In this document: positions 20,891 to 36,862 of the stretch, piece by piece
Layout of the letters: the number at the start of each line of letters is the position of its first letter
How positions within the stretch are numbered: the first letter of the stretch is position 1
Made by a program: the position numbers and the translations under genes
Virus record (IMG/VR): IMGVR_UViG_3300016667_000484
Location: 64,001-128,000 of that record
Reading direction: 5' to 3' (one strand)
Source: a virus
Taxonomy: Duplodnaviria > Heunggongvirae > Uroviricota > Caudoviricetes
DNA length: 64,000 nucleotides
Notes under the pieces: generated by a model
What the model was told of the DNA's origin: nothing
Databases searched by the model: none
What the model saw: only the letters and a program-made list of their open reading frames with translations

Positions 20891-23407
20891 TCAACCAAAG
20901 AAACTTTCGAGTGTATTTACGTGTTCGAGCTGCCAGTTGATTGCATCAGACACGAGCTTGAGTGGTTCTTTAAACGTCTTGTCAAACTGTGTGTCGTAGT
21001 CGATGTATCGATGCACGTCGAGTTCTTTTGGAAGGAACTGCGGGAACGCGATAACGTTCGTGCCTAGGGTGTTAGGCATCTTGAGATAACAGAACTTCAC
21101 CTTGTTGCCATTCTTGATCTCATCATCACGAAGCTTTAGCTTTTTGACGTGGTGATTGTAGACGATAGCACCACGAACATGGATCGGGACACCTTTCTTG
21201 AAGAGTGTCGATCGATCTTCCCACTTGTCGATCTCACTGACACCACGAGGAAAGCTTACTTCTTCAGGCTCAAGTCCTTTGAACACCTCATAGAAGTCAG
21301 ACACGAATTTTTGAAGGTCCTTCTCAGTTCCACTCAGCATGAGCTTATACGCTTCTTTGAACTTACCACGTACGATCGCAGGAGTGGAAGACTTAACTGC
21401 TTCGATGCCCATGATCTTCAGCTTGGGTTCTGCGTATTGAACACCTTCGGAGTTGTGAACGTTAAGGATGTATCGCTTCTTTGCGGTCCAGATTCCAGCG
21501 TCCGCGATTGCTTCTCGCTTCATCGCCATAGTGTTCTTGAAGGCGTTCTGCTGTTTGAAGAGAATCTCGTAAGCATCTTCGAGAACTTTCTCAAACTTTT
21601 GATCACATGCTTTGTCAAGGAAACCGACAGGGTCCGATGCTTTGACGTGCTTGACTAGAGGTGCCATGTTGACGTACAGTGAGTCGGTATCCATGTAGAG
21701 TACGTAGTCTACTGCAGCCGTATTCATGATCTTGTTCATAGCGATGTTCATGTACTTCTCAGCCCAACGAATCGAGAGCTGGCCAGAGAGTGTGATACCC
21801 TCTGCGATTCGAATGTCGAAGTACCGGAAGTATTTATTCCCGAGAGCGCCATAAAGTGAGTTCATCAAGATTTTAATTGCTTGCTGAGTGTTGTCAAGCT
21901 GGTTCATCTCGCGCTTGAGTTCATCAGCATGGGTCTCTTCATACTTCTGTTTGACACCAAGCATCTTCTTCTTAGTTGCCTTACGCTCGGCGTAGTAGTT
22001 CTCAATGATCTCGGGAAGGAAGCCTTGCTTGTCCTTTCGGAACATGACACCATTCGCCGCCACTGCAACATCCATCTTACGAATTTCTTCTGGAAGATCA
22101 ATGCCTTTCAGATAAAAGTCGACGTCACATGGCATGCCATAAGAGGCGTTGTCAACGATGGTCTCAGGTGACATGTTGTATTGAACAATCGTCATCGGAT
22201 ACAGAGAGTTCAAGTCGAAAGACACGACCCACTCATGCCGACCAACCTGCGGATCCTTGACGTAACCGCCCGGATACTCTGGACGATGCTTGTCCTCAGA
22301 AGGTGGGATCGCGATGTTCTTTTGGCTGAGATAACGATAGATGATCGAGTCCCAGATCGCAGTCGTACCGAGAGTGTCAGGATAGTTGACACCGCCCTTG
22401 TATGCGATGATCAGTGCCAGAGCCAACAGACCAGTTTGTGCTTCCAGCTTATCAACAAGGACAACGTCTCGAATGTTATAGTCGATGAACTTCTGGTGAT
22501 CCTGTTCGTACAGGTTATGAAGCGAACCGTACTCTTCGTATGAAAGTTTACGCTCACCGAGGATCACGTGAGAGATGTGGTCAAGTGAGTAAGACTCTTG
22601 AGGACCATACACATATCCAAACTTCTGGAACAAGTCCATGTAGTCAAGTTGATGAACACCGTAGATCTCGTAAGCGTCAAGCGACTTACCCTTCACACCG
22701 ATCTGACGATAGTTCACGATGTTCCAAGGCGAGAGCTTCTTCGCCCACTCCTCGCCGAGAAGCTTGGTGATACGGTTGACCAGATACGGGATGTCGAAGA
22801 GTCGAACGTTCCAACCGGTGATGACGTCAGGATAATGCTCTTCCCAATACGTCAGGAACTTCATTAACAGCTCGTTCTCATCGGTACACTTCACGTATCG
22901 AACGAGGCAACCTTCAGGAATACCCTTTGCTTTGCTTGCGTCGTAGTGCTTCAATCCCCAGACGTGGTAGACCGAGCTCTTGCTGTTCTTCATCGTGATC
23001 GATGTGACAGGGTAGCGTGCTTGTTCAGGGAACGGGAAACCATCATCGGACTTGACTTCGATGTCAATGTTGCCGATTGCGATGTGACTCAGGTTAACCT
23101 TGATGTCACCCGGAAAACGTTCGTTGATGAACTGTGCGACGTAGTTGTTGTTTCCAAAGACCTTGAAGTTATCGACGTCTTTGTAAGTCTCGAAGAACTC
23201 TTTTGCATCGTTGATCGAGTCGAACTTCATGGGCTCGACCTTCGTACCATCGAGTGAAGTCCATTGACCTGTCCAGTGACCTTCCTTGGCCTTTACATAG
23301 AAAGTTGGTGCAAACTTGACTCTTTCATGAATTCTCGTACCATTGTCAGTGTATCCACGATATAGAATGCTGCCGCCCATGCGGTGCACAGAAGTATAGA
23401 ACGTCAT
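20891..23407 (-). CDS. gp43: Family B DNA polymerase
   Basis: Exo DIEV; SFDLNSLYP, KILMNSLYGALGN, YMDTDS, KKRY; start MTFYTS at 23407. Confidence 0.98.
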   Translation of the reverse strand: MTFYTSVHRMGGSILYRGYTDNGTRIHERVKFAPTFYVKAKEGHWTGQWTSLDGTKVEPMKFDSINDAKEFFETYKDVDNFKVFGNNNYVAQFINERFPGDIKVNLSHIAIGNIDIEVKSDDGFPFPEQARYPVTSITMKNSKSSVYHVWGLKHYDASKAKGIPEGCLVRYVKCTDENELLMKFLTYWEEHYPDVITGWNVRLFDIPYLVNRITKLLGEEWAKKLSPWNIVNYRQIGVKGKSLDAYEIYGVHQLDYMDLFQKFGYVYGPQESYSLDHISHVILGERKLSYEEYGSLHNLYEQDHQKFIDYNIRDVVLVDKLEAQTGLLALALIIAYKGGVNYPDTLGTTAIWDSIIYRYLSQKNIAIPPSEDKHRPEYPGGYVKDPQVGRHEWVVSFDLNSLYPMTIVQYNMSPETIVDNASYGMPCDVDFYLKGIDLPEEIRKMDVAVAANGVMFRKDKQGFLPEIIENYYAERKATKKKMLGVKQKYEETHADELKREMNQLDNTQQAIKILMNSLYGALGNKYFRYFDIRIAEGITLSGQLSIRWAEKYMNIAMNKIMNTAAVDYVLYMDTDSLYVNMAPLVKHVKASDPVGFLDKACDQKFEKVLEDAYEILFKQQNAFKNTMAMKREAIADAGIWTAKKRYILNVHNSEGVQYAEPKLKIMGIEAVKSSTPAIVRGKFKEAYKLMLSGTEKDLQKFVSDFYEVFKGLEPEEVSFPRGVSEIDKWEDRSTLFKKGVPIHVRGAIVYNHHVKKLKLRDDEIKNGNKVKFCYLKMPNTLGTNVIAFPQFLPKELDVHRYIDYDTQFDKTFKEPLKLVSDAINWQLEHVNTLESFFG

Positions 23408-23465
23408 GAAAACTCCTTTGATAGAACAAGTCCAGTATACACCATCTAGCATGAGGTGTCAACTA

Positions 23466-26885: not shown

Positions 26886-27536
26886 TTATTTTGCTTCAAG
26901 TGCGATGTAGTATTCAGCTTTGCTCGATTTGAAGTGAGCAAGACCACGAGTCGACAACGAGACGTCGTAATCGTTTTGCATCAGTCGAAGGTTCTCGACT
27001 TTGATGATCATCCGGAATTCTGGGATGCTGAGGCTTTCTGCGATGACGATTTCGTACGCGTCAGCAGTAGGGTTCTTCGAATCAACCGCTGACATTGAGA
27101 TGGACGATCCATCGCTTGTGAAAGCGATCTCCGCGAGCTTCAGGACGCCTGCAGCCTTGATTACAGAGTCAAGTTCTTTCCACTTGATGTTGACCGTTGC
27201 TTCAGGAGTCGGGAACTTGATGTCCTTGTCAGGCGGAGACACGACCATCGCTTCAGCTGCGTAAGTATACGAGACCTTACTCTTGCCGGACGAAATGATA
27301 AACTTGTCAGCTAGGAACTCGACGTCGGGATCATCGAAGAGAGACAGAGTGGCCAAGAAACGAGACAGGTCGTAAACCCGAGCTGTTCCCTGGAAGTTCT
27401 CAGCGACTGTAGCAGAAGCCATCACGGTTTTCTGGGGGTGCATCGTGCGGATGACCGACCCTGGTTTGAAAACCAGCCCAGAGTTGATGGTCGAAAAGTT
27501 CTTAAGAACACCGATAGTTTCGTTGCTAAATTTCAT
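26886..27536 (-). CDS. gp45: Sliding clamp
   Basis: MKFSNETIGVLKNFSTINSGL...IYDL-like YDLSRFL; position before gp44. Confidence 0.95.
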   Translation of the reverse strand: MKFSNETIGVLKNFSTINSGLVFKPGSVIRTMHPQKTVMASATVAENFQGTARVYDLSRFLATLSLFDDPDVEFLADKFIISSGKSKVSYTYAAEAMVVSPPDKDIKFPTPEATVNIKWKELDSVIKAAGVLKLAEIAFTSDGSSISMSAVDSKNPTADAYEIVIAESLSIPEFRMIIKVENLRLMQNDYDVSLSTRGLAHFKSSKAEYYIALEAK

Positions 27537-27539
27537 GAT

Positions 27540-28478
27540 TTATTTCACCTTCTTCATGGCAGCACGACGCTGCTGTCTGTTCAAAACGGGTTGGGTAGTC
27601 TTATTTATATCACCATCATTGGATTTTGTCAAATAGTTCTTTTGGTTAGACGCGGCACTGGCCGTAGGTGACGCCTGAATCGCTGCCATAGCAGATAGTG
27701 ATCCACCAAAAGTGTACGATCCGACGTGCTGTAGTTGCATCCACGGGCAAAGCCAAACACTGATCCCGATCTTGCGAGCATAGTGACTGAACATATAGTC
27801 TTCTGACAGATACCGCTTGGTCTCTGGATCAATGACGCAGTCAAAGAACGTAGTGATCTCTCGACTTCCGTCGAAGTGCTCGGTACGAACATGGTCAGGG
27901 ATGTAGCTGAGTTCCGGGTATGCCTTAGCATACTTCTCAAAGACTTCACGATGGATCATCATGAAGCCGGTGCCACCTTCACGAATCTTTACGGGTTCAT
28001 CGATCTTAAACGATGTGATGTTCTCATCGGGATTGAACACATAGTCGCCGATGAAGTGTTCGAGTTGGAACGGATTCTTGTCAGCAAATCCACGTTCCAC
28101 TGCGACCTTGATCTTTTCCCACGCGATCGTTTTCTTTGGATACGCACCGGTGATGATGCCGTACTCATCTGCTGAGTTCGAGAGGTGCAACAGAGTAAGA
28201 ACGTCTTTGTGGTTAAACCCAATGTCAGAGTCAATGAACATCAGGTGCGTACAGTCAGAGCGTAAGAACTCATCGACGCAATAGTTTCGTGCACGAGTGA
28301 TCAGAGATTCGTTGAAGAGATAGTAATACCTCAGTTGAATTCCATATGTGGCACATACCGCGGACAAGTCGTTTGTTGATCGTGTGAACATACCGGCGCA
28401 TTGTCCACCATACATCGGTGTAGCCACAAACAACTTCTTTTTTCGTAGATCATCTACTTTGATTTCTAATTTCATCAC
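27540..28478 (-). CDS. GT-A fold glycosyltransferase-like protein
   Basis: FVATPMYGG, NESLITRARN, MFIDSD (DXD), GTGFMMI, SEDYMF. Confidence 0.7.
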   Translation of the reverse strand: MMKLEIKVDDLRKKKLFVATPMYGGQCAGMFTRSTNDLSAVCATYGIQLRYYYLFNESLITRARNYCVDEFLRSDCTHLMFIDSDIGFNHKDVLTLLHLSNSADEYGIITGAYPKKTIAWEKIKVAVERGFADKNPFQLEHFIGDYVFNPDENITSFKIDEPVKIREGGTGFMMIHREVFEKYAKAYPELSYIPDHVRTEHFDGSREITTFFDCVIDPETKRYLSEDYMFSHYARKIGISVWLCPWMQLQHVGSYTFGGSLSAMAAIQASPTASAASNQKNYLTKSNDGDINKTTQPVLNRQQRRAAMKKVK

Positions 28479-28978
28479 TTACCTTTCACTGGTCTTGCGT
28501 TTTCGAGCTGGCCTTTGATGAACTTAGCGCATTGCTTTGACGTCCATGCCATTTCATCAACGGCTGGAAGGCGATCATCTTTACCGATTCCACGAATGAC
28601 TGAGGCGGTCAACATCATAGCAGAAGCCATGATCATGCAGACTTGGTGAAGGTCAGACCCATCTTCACCGTCGTCGTAATCGTGGCCACGTTCAAAGTCT
28701 TCGATGTGACGCTTTAAGCTGTCAATCATCTGCTGCCACGGGAGCCCTTTTTCCCAGTTACGATCGGAATATTTCTGAGCTCCGTATTCAAGTGAGGCTG
28801 CAGCAGCCGCAATAGCTTCAAGAGGAACATGTCGAGTATAGGGAATCCCGAGGCCCTCACGTACCGCACCTGTTTCTGTTGCTTTGTACGTTGGTGCATC
28901 CGGTGATGATTTTCCATTAGCTTTTTTGACATCAGGGTAACCTCCAATCGGTTCATATAGTTCGCGATCACTCATCAT
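28475..28978 (-). CDS. dATP/dGTP diphosphohydrolase-like (DUF5664) all-alpha NTP pyrophosphatase
   Basis: YGAQKYSDRNWEKG...DSLKRHI...SDLHQV pattern. Confidence 0.75.
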   Translation of the reverse strand: MMSDRELYEPIGGYPDVKKANGKSSPDAPTYKATETGAVREGLGIPYTRHVPLEAIAAAAASLEYGAQKYSDRNWEKGLPWQQMIDSLKRHIEDFERGHDYDDGEDGSDLHQVCMIMASAMMLTASVIRGIGKDDRLPAVDEMAWTSKQCAKFIKGQLENARPVKGK

Positions 28979-29625
28979 CGTTTAGGCTGCTCCATATCGT
29001 TCTCAAGCCGAGCGATAGTCTGCAGACGAAGGATGTCAGCAGCAATATCATAACGGCTGTCATGTTTCACAAAAGTCTTGTTCCAATACTCTTCATCGGC
29101 GAGAGGGCAGAAACCATTCTGCTTTGGGAAGTTCAGTTTGGCGTCGATCCACGTACGAGTGTCACGCACAGACCAGAACTTCAAGAGCTCTTCGATCTCG
29201 GCGCGTCGGCCAATGAGCTTAGCCCAACGCTGCAAGATGATCGGATCGAACGTATTCGATCTGGACCACCAGTAATTGATCTTCCCGACTTCCTTGAGAT
29301 AGTTGATGAAGTTTTCAATGAAGACTTCCACGCGAACGTCTGCTGCACTTGGCTTCAGGACCTTCTTTGCGTCTTCAGATTGAGATAGCCACCAATCAAG
29401 GTCACGCTGAGTATAGACCGCACCAAACTCACGTACTTGATGTGCCATCTCGAGTTTGTCTTTACGAGCAAGGCTCACGAGTTCTTCGAGAGTGTAGGGG
29501 TTGTCAGAGGTAAAGCGATCCCAATCGAACGCCAGATATGAGCAGTCAAGCATTGGGATCGCAAAGACGTCTTGACCTAGAGTCTCGAAGTCATAGATAA
29601 AATGTTGGTTCACTGTTTGCCCCAC
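28975..29625 (-). CDS. DEDD 3'-5' exonuclease (DexA-like)
   Basis: IYDFETLG, WSRSNTFD, RDTRT, HDSRYD. Confidence 0.8.
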   Translation of the reverse strand: MGQTVNQHFIYDFETLGQDVFAIPMLDCSYLAFDWDRFTSDNPYTLEELVSLARKDKLEMAHQVREFGAVYTQRDLDWWLSQSEDAKKVLKPSAADVRVEVFIENFINYLKEVGKINYWWSRSNTFDPIILQRWAKLIGRRAEIEELLKFWSVRDTRTWIDAKLNFPKQNGFCPLADEEYWNKTFVKHDSRYDIAADILRLQTIARLENDMEQPKR

Positions 29626-29795
29626 CTTCCGGCATCACGTTTTTTGGTTTTTGTTGCATAATCTTCATCGGAAACAGCGCATGGATCATTAAGAGCATTG
29701 TGTAGCGTCGATAGATCATCTTTCCAGCACTTGATGCAGTAACTGCCTTCTCTACCGTCTTGAGTAACAGTTCTCACGAGGGAATGTTGGTTCAA
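29610..29795 (-). CDS. Small hypothetical protein
   Basis: Coupled overlaps with both neighbours. Confidence 0.4.
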   Translation of the reverse strand: MNQHSLVRTVTQDGREGSYCIKCWKDDLSTLHNALNDPCAVSDEDYATKTKKRDAGRWGKQ

Positions 29796-30991
29796 AAGAA
29801 ATTCTCCAAGGTCTGTTCTTTAGCAGAGTACTCTGCCTTCTGAGTATGATTATACTGCAAAACGTAATCGGTGTCAACTACTTGTCGGTTGCCCTTCAAA
29901 TATTCTACGACTTCGGTCGCCATGTCGGTCGCGGTTTGTACCGGTACGTTCTGGCAGATGTGGTTGGCGTTGCCGGTTCCAGCGTTCACGAGTTCAAAGT
30001 CCTCGGGTAGACCCATGATCGTCATCGCTTCACGATAAGTGATGTAACGATCTTCGTGAGGGTGAGTCAACATGGTCGGGTAGTGACCGACGAACGCACC
30101 GATGTAGTCCTTAGGAATGATCGTGCCACGACGCATGATGTTCTCACCACGACCGAGCTTTTCATGACGATACTTGCACTTCTCGACTTCTTTCTCGTAA
30201 CCATGCTTAGCCATCCACTCACCAACTTGCATGTAGTTGTAACCCATGCGCTCGATGTACGAGAACACATCACTGTTACGAACTTTCTGAGGCTCGACGA
30301 TGTCAGAGAACTGGCGATGAGTGATGCCGCCATGAATCTCTTCAAGGATGAACTTGTAGTACAGGTCGTCCTTCGACGGAGTCTTCTTGTTGATCGGATC
30401 CATCTGAAAGTTTGACTTGATACCAAGCAGGACATCTTCGATCTTCGTGTATGGGCGATTGTAGTAGTGAAGAAGTGGAGTCTTGTCTCCCTTCCAGAAG
30501 AAGTAGAAAGAACGCTCACGAATCTGAGGACCGCCATGAAGCAGAGTCTTTGTACGATACACCGACATCGTGTAACCATTCTTCTTGCCGATCGCCTTCA
30601 GTTCATTACGAACGTTCTCACCGATCTTCCCTGCAAAGCCAGGAGCATTTTCTCCCCACAGGACTTGAGGCTTCAGGTCACCAAGCACATACTCAGTTGT
30701 GATACGCATCCACTTGTTGTTTTCGTTGTGATCGCCGAAGCCATGTGATAGCTGACTCAAGCCCGCGCACGGGCATACGGACGAGACCACATCAACATTC
30801 ATATGGGGTTTACCACCTTCATCAAGAACGTAGTAAGGAACATCACCGGCGTAGTGGTTGACGATGTGGGCGTCGTTTGCTGCGAAGGCTTTGTACGACA
30901 TCATGTACTCTGGTCTTCGACCAAAAGCACGTTCAGCGCCGATTGTTTCACCACCGATGAGAGGGACGATTGATGCGTGAGTAAAAGTCAT
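29792..30991 (-). CDS. DNA cytosine-C5 methyltransferase-like protein with degenerate motif I
   Basis: CPCAGLS (IV), ENAPG (VI), PQIRERSF (VIII), TYREAMTIMGLPEDF (IX); motif I reads IVPLIGG. Confidence 0.8.
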   Translation of the reverse strand: MTFTHASIVPLIGGETIGAERAFGRRPEYMMSYKAFAANDAHIVNHYAGDVPYYVLDEGGKPHMNVDVVSSVCPCAGLSQLSHGFGDHNENNKWMRITTEYVLGDLKPQVLWGENAPGFAGKIGENVRNELKAIGKKNGYTMSVYRTKTLLHGGPQIRERSFYFFWKGDKTPLLHYYNRPYTKIEDVLLGIKSNFQMDPINKKTPSKDDLYYKFILEEIHGGITHRQFSDIVEPQKVRNSDVFSYIERMGYNYMQVGEWMAKHGYEKEVEKCKYRHEKLGRGENIMRRGTIIPKDYIGAFVGHYPTMLTHPHEDRYITYREAMTIMGLPEDFELVNAGTGNANHICQNVPVQTATDMATEVVEYLKGNRQVVDTDYVLQYNHTQKAEYSAKEQTLENFF

Positions 30992-32232
30992 AGATTATCC
31001 TTCACCTGTTTCATAAGATCTTCAAATACATACTCAGAGTCTTGGTGAGCTTTGTAGAAAGCATATGCACCTTCGCGCCACTCATCACGGAGGATCGGAT
31101 CGTCAGCGAGTCTCTTAACTGTATTTATTGCTTCTTCCATGTCTGACTTCTCTTTCGAGAGCCAGATTGTGAAGTTATCTTTAGACTTAGACAGAGGATC
31201 ACCTGTGACGCGATGAACACAGATGTCGCCATACTCTTTACGGAACACTGGAACGGTGCCGACCGAAGCCACTTCACAATGAGTGTACTCGATCGACTTC
31301 TCGATGAACTTAGACTTCAGGATCGACAGCTGGTAACCAAAGCCAACCTTAGACATCCGATGAAGCAACTTGTCGTTGACGTATGGGCCGAAGACCGAAG
31401 CTTTGTGGCCATACCGACCACCGAGGTGAAAGCCTTCTGGTTCAGATTTGATCTCATTGTAGAAGTCGCTCAGCTCCTTAAACGCCAAGAAAGCCGGAGA
31501 CTTCTCGATGCCTTCAAACGTAGTCAGGTACTCATTCGGCATCAGGTATTCGTTGTGCCACTGGAACATGAGGTCGAAACCCTTCCACGAGGTGCAACGA
31601 CCGATCCACTTATGATGCCATGGATCTTGTTCAGTGATGTCTTTCCAGTAGAGCTTGCGGTTGAGTTCAAAGTCAAGGCCCGGCTGGAAGTTCAAGATCT
31701 TCTTTGAGTCTTCTTCATCGTCGCCAAAGAACGACATCAACGATGAGCCGGCGTTACGTTCCTTGACGTAGTCAGAGAAGTCATTCGTGCGGGCATGAGC
31801 AAAGATCAGAGTCGCAGCATCGATCGCTTCGTCGAGAGCAGCATTACGCTTGATCGAATAGATCGTATGGTCGTGTTGAATCAGGATCACCGGCTTCTTG
31901 AAAGACTTCAATGCTTTGATCCAGTTGTCGATAGCTTCATCGCCTGCGCCTTTGCCACGGCCGTTACCCAGCGCAGGCAGAGAGTTGATGAAGATGTAGT
32001 CAGACTGATTGCACTCTTCGATGAAGCGATTGATCTGAGCTTCATCTGCAAACTTGAACAGATCAACTTCGCCCAAGTCGTGTGCGTTCTTACGAGAGAA
32101 CGTCTTATCTTTTGCTGCGTACACTTTGGTCTGATAGCCATGAGCTTTCAACCACTTGACTTGCTCAACAGTGTACTTCGTGACACCACATCCTTCGATG
32201 CCACGGGCCATGATGATGGCTACCTTAGTCAT
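30988..32232 (-). CDS. agt: DNA alpha-glucosyltransferase homologue
   Basis: MARGIEGCGVTK, QHDH, WIGRCTSWKG, EGIEKSPAF, GFGYQLS, EYTHCE match recalled T4 a-gt sequence. Confidence 0.9.
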   Translation of the reverse strand: MTKVAIIMARGIEGCGVTKYTVEQVKWLKAHGYQTKVYAAKDKTFSRKNAHDLGEVDLFKFADEAQINRFIEECNQSDYIFINSLPALGNGRGKGAGDEAIDNWIKALKSFKKPVILIQHDHTIYSIKRNAALDEAIDAATLIFAHARTNDFSDYVKERNAGSSLMSFFGDDEEDSKKILNFQPGLDFELNRKLYWKDITEQDPWHHKWIGRCTSWKGFDLMFQWHNEYLMPNEYLTTFEGIEKSPAFLAFKELSDFYNEIKSEPEGFHLGGRYGHKASVFGPYVNDKLLHRMSKVGFGYQLSILKSKFIEKSIEYTHCEVASVGTVPVFRKEYGDICVHRVTGDPLSKSKDNFTIWLSKEKSDMEEAINTVKRLADDPILRDEWREGAYAFYKAHQDSEYVFEDLMKQVKDNL

Positions 32233-32596
32233 AGATATACCTCTTACATTTGTCTAGAATTCGGTTCAATTCAACCTTGTCATTCAGGACTCTGTTCCTT
32301 GGCGAAGGGTGCGGTAGCCTGAAATGCATTTTATTTATGCGGTCGAGAACGGCAGACGGGAATCCACCGAGCGCTATGACTTTATTATAACCCAAAACTG
32401 CAGATTGTACATAGCTAAAGTCGATGTCTTTCAACTTTACTTCTCCACGTACATCTGTGCAGTTCATGAATGAGTAGTATCGAACACCAAGAAGATCGGT
32501 CCATTGATTGAGCCGATCGATCGTGTGGTTCTTGTAGTGAAACGCTTTCGGGTTATTCCCCGGATTCTGCCCGAGGATCAAAATCGATGAAGTCAA
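32225..32596 (-). CDS. Minimal uracil-DNA-glycosylase-superfamily protein
   Basis: ILGQNPG (motif A-like) and LPHPSPRN (motif B-like); TTG start with GGAG RBS. Confidence 0.6.
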   Translation of the reverse strand: MTSSILILGQNPGNNPKAFHYKNHTIDRLNQWTDLLGVRYYSFMNCTDVRGEVKLKDIDFSYVQSAVLGYNKVIALGGFPSAVLDRINKMHFRLPHPSPRNRVLNDKVELNRILDKCKRYIYD

Positions 32597-33023
32597 AGTC
32601 CACTCCTGCTTCGTCAAAGAAGTTCATGCTCGTCATCCAAGAGTCGAGCCACTTCCCATCCACTTTCTGGTTCGGCATCACGACGCGCTTGATACCAACC
32701 TGAATGACGCCCTTGGCACACTCAGAACAGATCGGAAGACCGTACACATACAGTGTGGCACCATCAAGTGAGGTACCATTGTAAGTCGCGTTGTAGATCG
32801 CATTCATCTCAGCATGAACGACGAACTTGTACTTCGTCTCACGATCATGAAGACGAGTGAAGTCGTCTTTGAGACCACGTGGCAGGCCATTGAAACCTTG
32901 GGACAGGACTTGTCCCTTAGCTCCAACAGTGACCGCGCCGATCTTACTCGATGGGTCCTTTGACCATTGTGCTACCTCATACGCAAGCTTGAGGTAGCGT
33001 AGATCCCACTTAAGGTTGTGCAT
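32553..33023 (-). CDS. cd: dCMP deaminase
   Basis: SKDPS, GFNG, HAEMNAI, PICSECAK zinc motifs. Confidence 0.92.
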   Translation of the reverse strand: MHNLKWDLRYLKLAYEVAQWSKDPSSKIGAVTVGAKGQVLSQGFNGLPRGLKDDFTRLHDRETKYKFVVHAEMNAIYNATYNGTSLDGATLYVYGLPICSECAKGVIQVGIKRVVMPNQKVDGKWLDSWMTSMNFFDEAGVDFDFIDFDPRAESGE

Positions 33024-33678
33024 TCATCAGCTCCTCGATGAACTTGAAGTGACGTTCGTAGACGTGAAGGTTGGTCGCAGTCCAGATGATGTCACCACAT
33101 TCGACACCTAGGTCTGACGCAAGCTGCTTCTGGACATGCATTGCCCAATGGATGTCGTTGTCGTAGCCAAACACAGCGTCGTTCGAACGCATCAGATAGT
33201 GACTGATGAGTTTGCCATCGCGGATCAAGAAGGTATTCGCGTAGGTGCAGATGAAGTCCGACATCCCATCACGTTTGTAGTCTTCGTGCATCGACGGACG
33301 ATTGTAAATCATCACCGCACGACGGCTGTTTGGATTCGCTTTAAGTTCCTTGAGAACATTATCGTACTGGTTGAAGTTTTCCTCGTGCCAGATGAGATAG
33401 CCATAGTTCGAGTTGATCTCGCCAAAGTCTGAGCAGACTTGATTCCAGATCGCAGGAGTTCCACCCGGGATGTCGTCAACATACAAAGACTGAGACTTAT
33501 ACCACTCGAGTTCGCGTTCGATGTACTCGTAGTTTGGTTTGCGGATGATCCAGTCTTCGTCAGCGATGAACGACTCGCCGATCACCTCGATCGTCTTCAC
33601 TCCGGTCTTGTCGATAACGAAGTCTTGATCTTTGTACTTCTGAATGAGCTTGGCTCGAATGTCAGCGACTCTTTGCAT
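33010..33678 (-). CDS. gp42: dCMP hydroxymethylase (thymidylate-synthase fold)
   Basis: DKTGVKTIE, EINSNYG, SRRAVMIYNRPSM, DFICT, RSNDAVFGYDND (Asp at the cytosine-specificity position). Confidence 0.88.
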   Translation of the reverse strand: MQRVADIRAKLIQKYKDQDFVIDKTGVKTIEVIGESFIADEDWIIRKPNYEYIERELEWYKSQSLYVDDIPGGTPAIWNQVCSDFGEINSNYGYLIWHEENFNQYDNVLKELKANPNSRRAVMIYNRPSMHEDYKRDGMSDFICTYANTFLIRDGKLISHYLMRSNDAVFGYDNDIHWAMHVQKQLASDLGVECGDIIWTATNLHVYERHFKFIEELMNAQP

Positions 33679-34222
33679 TTTGTACTCCGTCTAGGAACTT
33701 AGTCACGGTGTCGTAGGTGTTCTTGAACCCGCCGTTTTCGTGAATGTTGATGTGAAGTTTGTTTGGAATGATAGAACGTTTGAATGCTTCTTCGAATGCA
33801 ATCCGCGTCTCGTCGAACTCGGAGGGAGTACCTTCGAGAGAATTCTCGTCGTTACGCTCCATGATGTTGTGAGTCCAGTCAGTGAGAAGTACGAGAGCGA
33901 TCTCATCATCTTTACGAATCAGCATGTTCTCGATCGCGTAGATGTCTTCTGGGTCTGCGTTTCGATACTTCTTGCCATACACGATCGCACCAAGGTGGAA
34001 CCTATCGTAGATAACGTTGAAGTCTTCAGCGTAGTTCAGGTAGTAGCTGGTGTCTAGAAGCGACTTGTAGTGCTGAACTTCCCACTCGTTGGGGTTCTCT
34101 ACCTTAGGCGGAGACGACGAGTGATGGACGAGAATACGTGGATCGGTGAAGTATCGCTTGCGGAGCTGTTCGACAAGCGTCGACTTACCGCAACGATCCA
34201 TGCCTTCGATGATCAAAATCAT
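33662..34222 (-). CDS. Deoxynucleotide monophosphate kinase (thymidylate-kinase fold)
   Basis: IIEGMDRCGKST P-loop and YDRFHL. Confidence 0.8.
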   Translation of the reverse strand: MILIIEGMDRCGKSTLVEQLRKRYFTDPRILVHHSSSPPKVENPNEWEVQHYKSLLDTSYYLNYAEDFNVIYDRFHLGAIVYGKKYRNADPEDIYAIENMLIRKDDEIALVLLTDWTHNIMERNDENSLEGTPSEFDETRIAFEEAFKRSIIPNKLHINIHENGGFKNTYDTVTKFLDGVQNAKSR

Positions 34223-36439: not shown

Positions 36440-36862
36440 TCAGAGAACTTCTGGAAGGTGCCCGTGGTTACCTTCATGCGAAGGCGGAACCCAGCCATTC
36501 GGCTTCATCAAGTCAGGCAGACCCCAAGGGTTAGGACGATCCCACTTGACACCGGGAGACTTGGCCATGTTTGCGGCATGAACACGATTCCATGCTTCAG
36601 TCGCATCGACACCCATGACGTCAAGTGTACCGATCGCGAAGACGCACAAGTCGATCAGACCATCGACCACTTCCTCTGCGTTGCTTTGAATAAGCGCGGC
36701 GTCAGATGTCTCCTTGAACTCTTCGTGAACCATGCTCAGACGAAAAGCCATATACTTGCGAAGTAGATCCTTATCACCTTCCGCAAGCTTCTTTGTCATC
36801 CATTCATTCACACCAAACTTAGCATGCATATCAGCGATGTCTTTGACCCAATTGTCGCTCAT
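36440..36862 (-). CDS. MazG-like/PRA-PH all-alpha NTP pyrophosphatase
   Basis: EEFKE...EVVDGLIDL...VHAANMAK...DLMKP. Confidence 0.8.
   Translation of the reverse strand: MSDNWVKDIADMHAKFGVNEWMTKKLAEGDKDLLRKYMAFRLSMVHEEFKETSDAALIQSNAEEVVDGLIDLCVFAIGTLDVMGVDATEAWNRVHAANMAKSPGVKWDRPNPWGLPDLMKPNGWVPPSHEGNHGHLPEVL

Follow-up and report, generated by a model that had tools for sequence, protein, structure and literature searches.

The window analysed here is a 64,000-nt stretch from the 195-kb genome (734 ORFs; CheckV 100% complete) of a water-derived, T4-like phage. A megablast search with the region found no match among 50,697 phage records, and the phage is without any close cultured relative. 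At 29792-30991 (−; coordinates are those of the window and − denotes the minus strand) lies a methylase-like gene of the ‘PLIGG / CPCAGLS’ family, recognised from its ORF (399 aa), a PF00145 match and VIA superposition of an AF2 model. Its start overlaps the stop codon of the upstream gene (ctATGAct), a homologue of DNA alpha-glucosyltransferase (a-gt; 30988-32232, −; PF11440, 8.1e-71; phrog_2888, 5.6e-91). Further upstream are genes for a dCMP deaminase (32553-33023, −; PF00383, 8.9e-20; phrog_174, 9.5e-45), a dCMP hydroxymethylase homologous to gp42 (33010-33678, −; 55-57% identity to T-even gp42), a dNMP (thymidylate-kinase-fold) kinase (33662-34222, −; PF02223, 7.7e-07, N-terminal P-loop only; phrog_761, 2.1e-11), likely an hm-dCMP kinase by its likeness to T4 gp1, and a MazG/PRA-PH-type nucleotide pyrophosphohydrolase that is a candidate dCTPase (36440-36862, −; PF01503; phrog_671, 1.3e-21).

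The gp42 homologue has Asp at the base-specificity position (FGYDND, aligned with FGFRND of gp42 and GVPFN of TS), and a second TS, of the Asn type, is encoded elsewhere in the genome. No match to the TET/JBP dioxygenases (PF12851) was found in the complete genome, and none to CmoA (TIGR00740) in the complete 195 kb. Asp in the gp42 homologue, the separate Asn-type TS, a-gt, the kinase-like gene and the lack of TET together mark a genuine T4-type pathway, in agreement with the hmC setting assumed in the original prediction for this locus. A TET-type route to hmC is ruled out by the missing PF12851 match, and a CmoX route by the missing CmoA and by the motif VCPC, which is not SPPC.

Fold, catalytic residues and cofactor pocket

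The methylase-like protein passes the PF00145 gathering score (63.3 against 22; E 3.4e-17), matching profile positions 60-322 of 324 only, and misses NCBIfam TIGR00675 (dcm), scoring 21.5 bits against a cut-off of 100.65. The AF2 model (pLDDT 95.5, pTM 0.93) was superposed by VIA on M.HaeIII (1dct; Z 26.3, rmsd 3.0 Å, 276 residues) and on M.HhaI (1fjx; Z 25.7, rmsd 3.2 Å, 296 residues, model 1-368 on 10-325), and the predicted structure is a full two-domain C5-MTase fold, with a Rossmann-like catalytic domain and a target-recognition domain.

The translation contains the catalytic PC, EN and QxRxR motifs, which had been described as intact and are so. Conservation was scored in an alignment of 96 diverse relatives. 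Motif IV has P74-C75 (30767-30772, −; 95/96 and 96/96) within VCPCAGLS, in which A76, G77, L78 and S79 beside Cys75 (87-94 of 96) stand in place of the canonical QxFS. Motif VI has E114-N115-A116 (30644-30652, −; 96/96, 95/96 and 93/96) within GENAP, the canonical form being ENV, and motif VIII has Q156-I-R158-E-R160 (30512-30526, −; Q156 94/96, both Arg 96/96) within PQIRER; motifs IX and X read RYITYRE and CQNVPV. C75, E114, R158 and R160 are invariant throughout the alignment, at identities down to ~30%, and every residue required for base flipping and attack on C6 (Cys75, Glu114, Arg158, Arg160) is retained.

The N-terminal region is different. Its 40-60 residues gave no sequence alignment to canonical methylases, even with a 96-sequence profile, and Pfam and PDB profile alignments start only near motif III-IV. 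Residues were mapped by VIA superposition on M.HhaI (N-terminal offset 9) and by hhalign against E. coli Dcm, and the two agreed. Residues 7-18 read SIVPLIGGETIG in the translation, and residues 8-14 (30950-30970, −; translation and alignment), IVPLIGG, occupy the place of the canonical motif I, FxGxGG. V9 corresponds to F18 of M.HhaI, P10 to A19, L11 to G20 and G13-G14 to G22-G23; across the family F18 is replaced by V or I and G20 by L (95/96). The earlier description of motif I as broken is wrong, because the motif, although not the canonical FxGxGG, is near-invariant across relatives (P10 96/96, L11 95/96, G13 96/96, G14 95/96). IVPLIGG is a selected alternative motif, not the result of decay.

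A similar exchange is likely at the motif II position, where canonical enzymes have E-W and where strand 2 of the AF2 model ends at S32, followed by Y33; the family has Ser (85/96) and Tyr, Phe or Trp (95/96) here, and an acid in no case. An alternative counterpart of the Dcm motif II Glu, E28, was paired by hhalign at low confidence, in a mapping by offset and profile, and was rejected for that low confidence and for its position ahead of strand 2 in the model. The conserved set at SAM-contact positions comprises P10-L11, S32-Y33, F36, N39, N92, W94 and Q347, and the residues that hold SAM in all characterised C5-methylases appear to have been replaced by this different, equally conserved set. 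Traits of the SAM pocket that are kept include G13-G14, the aromatic residue after strand 2, D57 (75/96; motif III Asp position) and N348 of motif X, and given these surviving features the protein may bind SAM in a shifted mode. In RNA m5C methylases, which do bind SAM, the first glycine is replaced by Ala. No folate-binding signature was identified in the methylase-like protein.

Family distribution, gene context and C-terminal tail

The family comprises at least 741 clusters at 50% identity. (I/V)(I/V)PL(I/V)GG is nearly invariant, and the same motif is present in all family representatives listed (n=150). Members were seen here in viral or virus-like contigs only; cultured carriers include S-TIM5 and Pseudoalteromonas phage XG4, with Bacillus phage G as an outlier. 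One member, P0195, sits on a phage-like contig. Among long fusion members an informative extra domain was found in one case only, a CXXC zinc finger. A literature search by family motifs returned irrelevant matches only, and the family is absent from the descriptions in the MetaGPA (PMC8670742), TET (PMC8256090) and CmoX (PMC12783734) papers. Given its size, the lack of studies on it and its occurrence in cytosine-modifying phages, the family, whose members are almost all from uncultured sources, probably carries out DNA chemistry not yet described. Relatives carry the source annotation ‘site-specific DNA-cytosine methylases’, and the simple label ‘DNA cytosine methylase’ allows mis-annotation to spread.

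Gene context was compared across 235 loci from 22 lineages, gathered by similarity to the methylase-like enzyme itself; these loci are phylogenetically non-independent, and counts of lineages, not of loci, are the fair measure. Of the 235 loci, 130 have a TS homologue no more than 10 kb away, with Asp in 129, one unreadable and Asn in none. The Asp type was found in 16 of the 22 lineages, the remaining six, which gave no TS homologue, being represented only by fragments ≤26% complete and hence uninformative, and also in S-TIM5, Pseudoalteromonas phage XG4 and Bacillus phage G. Co-occurrence of the motif I change with gp42 and a-gt had been proposed as a check, and across phages the variant motif does accompany genes of the gp42 type and for DNA glycosyltransferases. 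All complete carrier genomes retain a nucleotide-level hydroxymethylase, and the methylase-like enzyme would therefore not be a stand-alone hmC writer.

In 160 of 225 loci there is an overlap between the upstream gene and the start of the methylase-like gene. Upstream genes encode glycosyltransferases (a-gt, a 419-aa GT-like protein, GT1/GT4-like, TAGT, GT25) or other enzymes (UDP-galactopyranose mutase, UDP-glucose dehydrogenase, cytidylyltransferase, epimerase, 5-hmdU-DNA-kinase-like), and the overlap partners span at least five unrelated glycosyltransferase families, some of cell-envelope type. In five lineages the 5-hmdU-DNA-kinase-like gene (PF18723) is part of a cassette just upstream of the methylase-like gene, and in the syntenic relatives L121 and L113 a kinase cassette takes the place of a-gt at the same position. 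The ATGA coupling to a-gt that had been noted is present, but it is not specific to a-gt, as relatives overlap other glycosyltransferases, sugar-nucleotide enzymes or the kinase-like gene. Coupling of this kind usually ties translation of the methylase-like gene to the 3′ end of a hypervariable cassette, whose enzymes derivatise the 5-hydroxymethyl group on DNA. Marking the fixed end of this DNA-sugar/kinase cassette, the family offers a practical beacon in metagenomes for DNA modifications that are new. The cassette often includes a UDG-fold gene, which is nevertheless missing from many relatives. A GT-A-like gene in the window (PHROG 1574; 27540-28478) was weighed as a possible dedicated partner but discarded, since it occurs in phages that are not among the phage records matched by the methylase-like protein. 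Homologues (48-63% identity) are found in Stenotrophomonas phage DLP_6 and in phages of Sinorhizobium and Rhizobium, and the gene seems to belong to the lineage as a neighbour of gp45.

The methylase-like protein ends in TLENFF (29795-29812, −), a candidate gp45 clamp-binding peptide by likeness to the polymerase tail. The window encodes both the gp45 sliding clamp (26886-27536, −; PF09116, 3.4e-14; phrog_223, 1.4e-66) and the family B DNA polymerase gp43 (20891-23452, −; tblastn; PF00136/PF03104), which ends in NTLESFFG. An ending of this kind (TLENFF, or TLESFFG in the polymerase) is found in only two real genes among the 734 ORFs, and a similar ending in a third, baseplate protein (PF12322) was taken as coincidence. 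In other phage groups the tails of methylase-like proteins co-vary with those of the polymerases. AF2 pLDDT is low (68) across the last residues of the protein. A predicted complex of the gp45 trimer with residues 340-399 scored 0.59 (best of three controls, 0.01), a weak result in which runs shared ≥29% of contacts and partner pLDDT was ≥32. Of 80 solved complexes 58 pass the mark that it reached, as do 2 of 110 mismatched pairs, those passing at ≤0.60 being 7 of the 80 solved complexes and both of the mismatches; a complex of clamp and polymerase tail peptide is already solved, and the pass may reflect memorisation. TLENFF looks like a copy of the polymerase clamp-binding tail, which is a new observation, and such copying points to phage DNA that has just been replicated as the site of action. 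We are aware of no DNA-modifying phage enzyme reported to carry a tail that binds gp45.

Possible activities in the hmC pathway

The explanation favoured here is that the gene encodes a replication-coupled DNA cytosine-C5 enzyme of the phage hmC system and not an ordinary methylase. This is put forward tentatively and may well prove wrong, its overall weight being a compromise between those given to two component claims. It is rather probable that the pocket has given up canonical SAM-dependent methylation and that the enzyme acts within the hmC pathway on phage DNA; that its specific chemistry is SAM-independent writing of hydroxymethyl groups on leftover cytosine is possible but doubtful.

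In the mechanism proposed for such writing, the enzyme would ride the gp45 clamp along newly made phage DNA, where cytosines missed by pre-replicative replacement would be flipped and the Cys75-C6 adduct formed. SAM being shut out of the refilled pocket, a one-carbon unit from formaldehyde or 5,10-methylene-tetrahydrofolate would be added as hydroxymethyl, and this reversible step would be pulled forward by the co-translated glycosyltransferase (the kinase in other lineages), which would cap the new hydroxyl. However, with efficient exclusion of dCTP little unmodified C would be left to be mopped up, and T-even phages do without such an enzyme; cells also contain little free formaldehyde, and without coupling the equilibrium lies towards loss of the hydroxymethyl group. 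The suggestion that this is the first natural SAM-independent DNA cytosine-5 hydroxymethyltransferase, clamp-tethered and with its product trapped by a partner, acting as a post-replicative proofreader of DNA modification, is speculative.

An ordinary SAM-dependent C5-methyltransferase whose motif I is peculiar to its clade, and which, while tethered to the clamp, methylates cytosines left unmodified in the phage DNA and so places 5mC beside hmC as extra anti-restriction protection, would explain the full fold, the presence of motifs IV, VI, VIII, IX and part of X, the Pfam score above gathering, and the retention of the glycine pair, D57 and N348. It would also suit the annotation of relatives as site-specific DNA-cytosine methylases and the single fusion to a CXXC zinc finger, a domain reading unmodified CpG. 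What makes it somewhat unlikely is the family-wide replacement of the three most conserved SAM contacts (motif I Phe, first Gly and probably the motif II acid), the N-terminal 40-60 residues that cannot be aligned to canonical methylases by sequence, the wide margin by which the dcm cut-off is missed, and a strict association with Asp-type TS and a hydroxymethyl-derivatising cassette, unexpected of a generic anti-restriction methylase. The enzyme might instead act on hmC, or on phosphorylated hmC where a kinase is present, with Cys75 attacking C6, the hydroxyl or phosphate leaving and the exocyclic methylene taking a nucleophile, or with formaldehyde released in a site-specific erasure. The phage cytosines should already carry a substituent at C5, in vitro C5-methylases deprived of SAM can couple nucleophiles to hmC and strip its hydroxymethyl group (PMC7176277 describes a related use), and the PF18723 kinase-like neighbour in five lineages has a thymidine counterpart that creates a leaving group for substitution. 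Yet the enzyme stays constant while the cassette swaps glycosyltransferases and kinases, both of which require the hydroxyl to be free and would be in competition with the enzyme; plain hmC is the acceptor implied by the a-gt homologue (PF11440, 8e-71), no candidate nucleophile-donor gene conserved alongside was found in the compared loci, and a phage would gain no obvious benefit from erasing its own protective mark. Action on hmC is thus judged improbable.

Least probable is a protein that does not modify phage DNA, serving either as a reader or chaperone that flips the base and offers hmC to recruited glycosyltransferases, or as a weapon against host cytosine DNA through covalent trapping or deamination. 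Some of the unrelated glycosyltransferases encoded directly upstream, of at least five families and partly of cell-envelope type, might lack base flipping of their own, the UDG-fold gene is frequent in the cassette, and SAM-starved C5-methylases deaminate cytosine. However, Cys75, Glu114, Arg158 and Arg160 are invariant across hundreds of clusters, which speaks for catalysis, and a flipped base would be buried in the protein's own pocket, where a second enzyme could not get at it; the clamp tail suggests a place at phage replication forks and not on host DNA, and many relatives lack the UDG-fold gene.

Were the pocket of the favoured cytosine-C5 enzyme truly SAM-free, nature would already have evolved the ‘atypical’ C5-methylase chemistry that has so far been only a laboratory trick. 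An enzyme that writes, erases or derivatises hmC in one step and by sequence would change the view of phage DNA hypermodification, adding a post-replicative, clamp-coupled layer atop nucleotide-pool replacement, and could be used directly to map epigenomes and label DNA.

Comparison with known systems

The protein shares with M.HhaI, M.HaeIII and E. coli Dcm the fold, Pro-Cys, the motif VI Glu, the motif VIII Arg-x-Arg, motif IX and the motif X Asn. Unlike canonical C5-methylases, it has a PLIGG-type motif in place of FxGxGG, Ser plus an aromatic residue probably in place of the motif II acid, CPCAGLS in place of PCQxFS and W94 in place of Leu, together with a candidate clamp tail and, wherever the context is informative, a cytosine-specific TS homologue. 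C5-MTases without SAM can, in vitro, add formaldehyde to C, remove it from hmC and couple nucleophiles to hmC, by covalent activation of C6 without methyl transfer. These are side activities of SAM enzymes deprived of their cofactor, whereas a natural enzyme with a remodelled pocket is proposed here. Such SAM-free hydroxymethylation, on which the original prediction drew, is real: PMC7176277, citing Liutkeviciute 2009, has M.HhaI hydroxymethylating the GCGC sites of lambda DNA.

CmoX of Synechococcus phage S-B43, a DNA cytosine C5-carboxymethyltransferase (PMC12783734; PDB 8yf3; VIA Z 24.2), is likewise a phage C5-methylase fold repurposed for another C5 substituent that is elaborated later, but it uses carboxy-SAM, has SPPC and Arg350 and needs phage CmoA, whereas the motif here is VCPC and CmoA was not found in the genome. 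In phage modules of C5-MT, TET and glycosyltransferase the methylase is SAM-dependent and TET makes the hydroxyl (Burke et al. 2021, PMC8256090). These modules resemble the present locus in the clustering of a methylase-fold gene with DNA glycosyltransferases (TAGT in some relatives) and in glycosylated hmC as end product, and differ from it in that TET is missing here and hm-dCMP is made before replication by the gp42 homologue.

The T4 hmC pathway (gp42, gp1, gp56, alpha-/beta-glucosyltransferase) is matched here by the gp42 and a-gt homologues, the dNMP-kinase-like gene, the dCMP deaminase and a separate td. T-even phages, unlike this phage, run that pathway without a methylase-fold gene, and tblastn of the methylase-like protein against T-even records gave no match. 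The short hydrophobic C-terminal peptide recalls DNMT1-PCNA and the T4/RB69 gp43 tail with gp45, although clamp binding is here only predicted, and weakly. Thymidine-hypermodification pathways with 5-hmdU DNA kinases (PF18723; Lee et al., PMC8989533) are echoed by the HMUDK-like kinase in five relative lineages; they act on hydroxymethyluracil with other substitution enzymes, whereas cytosine is the expected base here and a-gt is the gene present in the window.

Motifs and cofactor pocket of the methylase-like protein

Translation of the minus-strand methylase-like gene (29792-30991; 399 residues) contains every motif listed in the original prediction: residues 7-18 (motif I) read SIVPLIGGETIG, and these are accompanied by VCPCAGLS (catalytic motif, P74-C75), GENAP (E114) and PQIRER (R158 and R160). 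RYITYRE (motif IX) and CQNVPV (motif X) are present as well. To judge from these motifs, the machinery to flip a cytosine-type base and attack C6 is intact, and residues for recognition of N3/N4 and O2 are retained, so that the target base should be cytosine or a 5-substituted cytosine. The Pfam match (PF00145, C-5 cytosine DNA methylase; E 3.4e-17) covers only profile positions 60-322 of 324, starting just before motif IV, and the first 40-60 residues could not be aligned by sequence to any canonical methylase (Pfam; 96-sequence profile against all PDB chains). The score with the NCBIfam dcm model is 21.5 bits, against a cut-off of 100.65.

Relatives are numerous: 1918 were identified by word-indexed search, and exhaustive HMMER search of 50%-identity representatives gave 741 clusters at E <= 1e-3 (240 of them <= 1e-30). 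Among the 150 representatives listed, essentially all full-length proteins have the (I/V)(I/V)PL(I/V)GG start and (C/P)PCAGLS. P10, G13, C75, E114, R158 and R160 are invariant in a 96-sequence family alignment extending down to about 30% identity, and L11 and G14 are each found in 95/96. Motif I had been described as broken, but this conservation indicates a conserved alternative and no break. Other conserved positions are 32 (S in 85/96), 33 (Y/F/W in 95/96), F36 (94), N39 (90), N92 (95), W94 (87), Q347 (95) and N348 (92). In one 598-aa family member from an ENA metagenome (P0205), fusion to a CXXC zinc finger (PF02008, 6.6e-07) adds a domain known to read unmodified CpG.

Superposition of a high-confidence AlphaFold2 model built on the 96-sequence alignment (pLDDT 95.5, pTM 0.93) gave Z 26.3 with M.HaeIII (276 residues at 3.0 Å rmsd) and Z 25.7 with M.HhaI ternary complexes (296 residues at 3.2 Å rmsd), model residues 1-368 lying over HhaI 10-325. 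The best viral structural match is gp301 of Bacillus phage G (TM 0.76; L255:155-1435, also L260), a sequence outlier with CPCSGLS and FIFGG, the latter an intermediate motif I. Two separate mappings, one by the N-terminal structural offset of 9 and one by hhalign against E. coli Dcm, agree that V9 corresponds to M.HhaI Phe18, P10 to Ala19, L11 to Gly20 and G13-G14 to Gly22-Gly23. After strand 2, where all C5-methylases have a ribose-binding Glu and then an aromatic residue, the methylase-like protein appears to have Ser-Tyr; a low-confidence hhalign pairing would instead set E28, which precedes the strand, against the Dcm Glu. In the HaeIII alignment W94 takes the place of Leu in the canonical R-G-x-L-F segment, a residue that contacts the cofactor in M.HhaI. 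Some features of the SAM pocket are kept (the Gly pair, Asn348, the aromatic residue that follows strand 2 and, in 75/96, the motif III residue Asp57), so that SAM binding is strongly inferred, rather than demonstrated, to be lost. The replacement set at the SAM contacts is conserved and includes several polar residues, suggesting that a ligand site has been kept rather than lost.

Cytosine modification genes and the upstream cassette

The window belongs to a 195,338-bp virus record rated complete by CheckV. One thymidylate synthase (TS) homologue (33010-33678) is of gp42 type: it shares 55-57% identity with the dCMP hydroxymethylase gp42 of T-even phages, and its base-specificity residue is Asp (FGYDND, opposite FGFRND of gp42 in the alignment). 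A second, full-length TS elsewhere in the genome is Asn-type (336 bits). The next gene upstream of the methylase-like gene clearly encodes a homologue of DNA alpha-glucosyltransferase (a-gt, 30988-32232; PF11440 8e-71, phrog_2888 5.6e-91), and the neighbourhood also encodes a dCMP deaminase, a thymidylate-kinase-fold kinase, two MazG-type pyrophosphohydrolases, the gp45 sliding clamp and the polymerase. Searches of the genome for TET/JBP, ThyX and CmoA found none of these. This gene content is that of a T4-type route to glucosylated hydroxymethylcytosine (hmC), and the substrate of a canonical C5-methylase should therefore be rare or absent in phage DNA.

The MazG-type proteins differ: that at 28475-28978 (minus strand) is dATP/dGTP diphosphohydrolase-like (PF18909) and present only in the closest relatives, and that at 36440-36862 (minus strand) matches PRA-PH/phrog_671. 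No dUTPase-family gene was found in the genome; one of the two may be the dCTPase. Between the dCMP deaminase gene and a-gt, 32225-32617 (minus strand) encodes a 130-aa protein with a weak, below cut-off match to the uracil-DNA-glycosylase superfamily (E 0.003), and homologues recur at the same position in many relatives, though not all. An orf of 61 aa that starts at TTG and contains a CxxC pair (29610-29795, minus strand) lies in the approximately 170 nt separating the methylase-like gene from the exonuclease gene; these abut without a spacer in a 96%-identical relative (L013), and the orf may be a small insertion or spurious.

Gene order in this lineage is gp42, dCMP deaminase, a variable 1-4 kb, methylase-like gene, exonuclease, GT-A-like gene and gp45. 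The proposed coupling to a-gt holds in that the a-gt stop and methylase-like start codons do overlap (ATGA), but it is not specific to a-gt, as the methylase-like start is overlapped by an upstream gene in 160/225 loci and many different genes occupy that position. These encode a 419-aa GT-like protein (72 loci), a-gt (37), UDP-galactopyranose mutase (19), a 365-aa protein of unknown function (16), a cytidylyltransferase (12), an epimerase (8), a GT1/GT4-like protein (7), UDP-glucose dehydrogenase, a TET-associated glycosyltransferase (PF20691) or a 5-hmdU-DNA-kinase-like protein (PF18723) (3 each), or GT25 (2). The methylase-like gene thus stays fixed and anchors the 3′ end of a cassette that is hypervariable, and the enzyme stays constant while the chemistry on the hydroxymethyl group would vary.

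An exact swap at the upstream position is seen between two syntenic relatives, with a-gt in L121 (8140-9989) and, in L113 (6219-9989), four genes encoding myo-inositol-1-phosphate synthase, a 240-aa protein, a 138-aa protein and the PF18723 kinase-like protein. The set of four is a candidate pathway for a hypermodification of hydroxymethylcytosine, phospho- or inositol-linked, that is as yet undescribed. L104, L105 and L010 are further loci of this kind, the 138-aa protein matches no known family, and L113 also has an Asp-type TS gene. In place of a-gt, L003:7134-10008 has an epimerase, a 363-aa unknown protein and UDP-galactopyranose mutase immediately before the methylase-like gene, as do 19 further loci (e.g. 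L076:4038-5039), which suggests galactofuranose on phage DNA. The GT-A-like gene (27540-28478, minus strand; DSD motif, PHROG 1574, no Pfam match), conserved beside gp45, was rejected as a dedicated partner, with homologues in Stenotrophomonas (DLP_6), Sinorhizobium (phiM-type) and Rhizobium phages whose records are absent among the matches to the methylase-like protein. Synechococcus ACG-2014f phages are among the records with a weaker PHROG 1574 match, and one homologue is annotated ‘dpG-synthase-like’.

Association with Asp-type thymidylate synthase homologues

Loci carrying a family member (n = 235, from IMG/VR, other metagenome contigs, three cultured phages and the window's own locus) were clustered on their methylase-like proteins (single linkage, 55%), which gave 22 lineages; loci are non-independent samples, making the lineage count the fair statistic. 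A TS homologue lies within 10 kb of the family member in 130/235 loci, with Asp at the specificity position in 129, one unreadable and no Asn. Whole-record searches brought in three further lineages with an Asp-type gene. Among these are two complete jumbo genomes, of 360 and 389 kb, and both have one Asn-type and one Asp-type gene. The association is one-sided even by lineage: the variant motif I, for which co-occurrence with gp42 and a-gt had been raised as a check, is found with gp42-type genes and glycosyltransferases, and 16/22 lineages have an Asp-type gene, the other six being known only from fragments <=26% complete.

In cyanophage S-TIM5, the sole TS-family gene (gp076, L001:4775-5611), ~2.4 kb from the family member, is annotated as thymidylate synthase, yet is Asp-type (GVPLD) where true thymidylate synthases have Asn. 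The product is probably a dCMP methylase or hydroxymethylase, which would imply modified cytosine in this cultured phage. In Pseudoalteromonas phage XG4, a gp42-like gene lies 5 kb upstream of the family member. Bacillus phage G (497 kb) has an Asp-type homologue (GTPYD) 13 kb from gp301, hinting at unrecognised cytosine modification.

Candidate clamp-binding tail, proposed mechanism and known systems

The methylase-like protein ends in QTLENFF and the family-B polymerase of the same phage in NTLESFFG. Only four of 734 orfs (>=60 aa, all six frames, whole genome) end in such a motif: these two, a 90-aa plus-strand orf and a baseplate protein. The tails track each other in contigs carrying both genes, NT(I/L)E(D/S)FF being paired with (N/D)(T/L)LE(A/E/S)F(F/L/I) in two lineages and, in a different phage group, polymerase YTTSLF with KV(N/K)S(T/I)(F/I); a loosely defined tail of this kind is present in 160/245 family members of 370-450 aa. 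A predicted complex of the gp45 trimer with residues 340-399 scored 0.59 (best of three controls 0.01), although memory of a similar solved complex may contribute. The score mark used is reached by 58/80 solved complexes and 2/110 mismatched pairs, and scores <=0.60 include just seven of the 80 solved complexes and both passing mismatches. Prediction runs shared at least 29% of contacts, with partner pLDDT of at least 32. The model thus lends weak support to gp45 binding, and the sequence evidence for a clamp tail is the stronger. Such a putative tail would bring the enzyme to replication forks, or to the phage DNA behind them, which argues against a host-DNA target; a host-directed role, or that of a non-modifying reader, is very improbable.

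We consider it moderately probable that the enzyme is not a canonical SAM methylase and forms part of an hmC system acting on phage DNA. More tentatively, it may itself write hydroxymethyl groups: SAM would be excluded from the pocket and the activated C5 carbanion would capture a one-carbon unit as hydroxymethyl. C5-methylases without SAM hydroxymethylate cytosine with formaldehyde in vitro, according to a passage in PMC7176277 citing Liutkeviciute 2009. The formaldehyde reaction is reversible and unfavourable at cellular formaldehyde levels, which may be why the gene is paired with that of a hydroxyl-capping enzyme; a translationally coupled glycosyltransferase or kinase would make the step irreversible. 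An activated donor such as methylene-THF would be an alternative one-carbon source. Writing of hydroxymethyl would explain a constant enzyme with a varying tailoring cassette, and loss of SAM binding would be selected because methylation is a dead end for glycosylation.

Hardly less likely than the hydroxymethyl-writing mechanism, though likewise below even odds, is a normal SAM methylase that has a deviant loop and methylates leftover C: the persisting pocket features would suit it, to be set beside the conserved replacements at the SAM contacts and the strict association with Asp-type TS genes. Action on hmC itself (substitution or erasure), one of the readings in the original prediction, is improbable.

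The nearest known families are the canonical C5-methylases and the recently described phage carboxymethyltransferase CmoX. Canonical C5-methylases share the fold and catalytic motifs of the methylase-like protein, but their motif I (FxGxGG) is not matched, the acid of motif II appears to be replaced, and the curated profiles diverge, with a Pfam match but a score below the NCBIfam dcm cut-off. CmoX is likewise a repurposed methylase, but it retains an adenosyl cofactor, has an SPPC motif and works with CmoA (PMC12783734); SPPC and CmoA are absent here, and an adenosyl cofactor is probably not used. In other phages, MT-TET-GT modules arrive at the same product along another path (PMC8256090). 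No description of the family or its motif was found in the searchable literature, and a SAM-independent reaction, if confirmed, would be categorically new chemistry.
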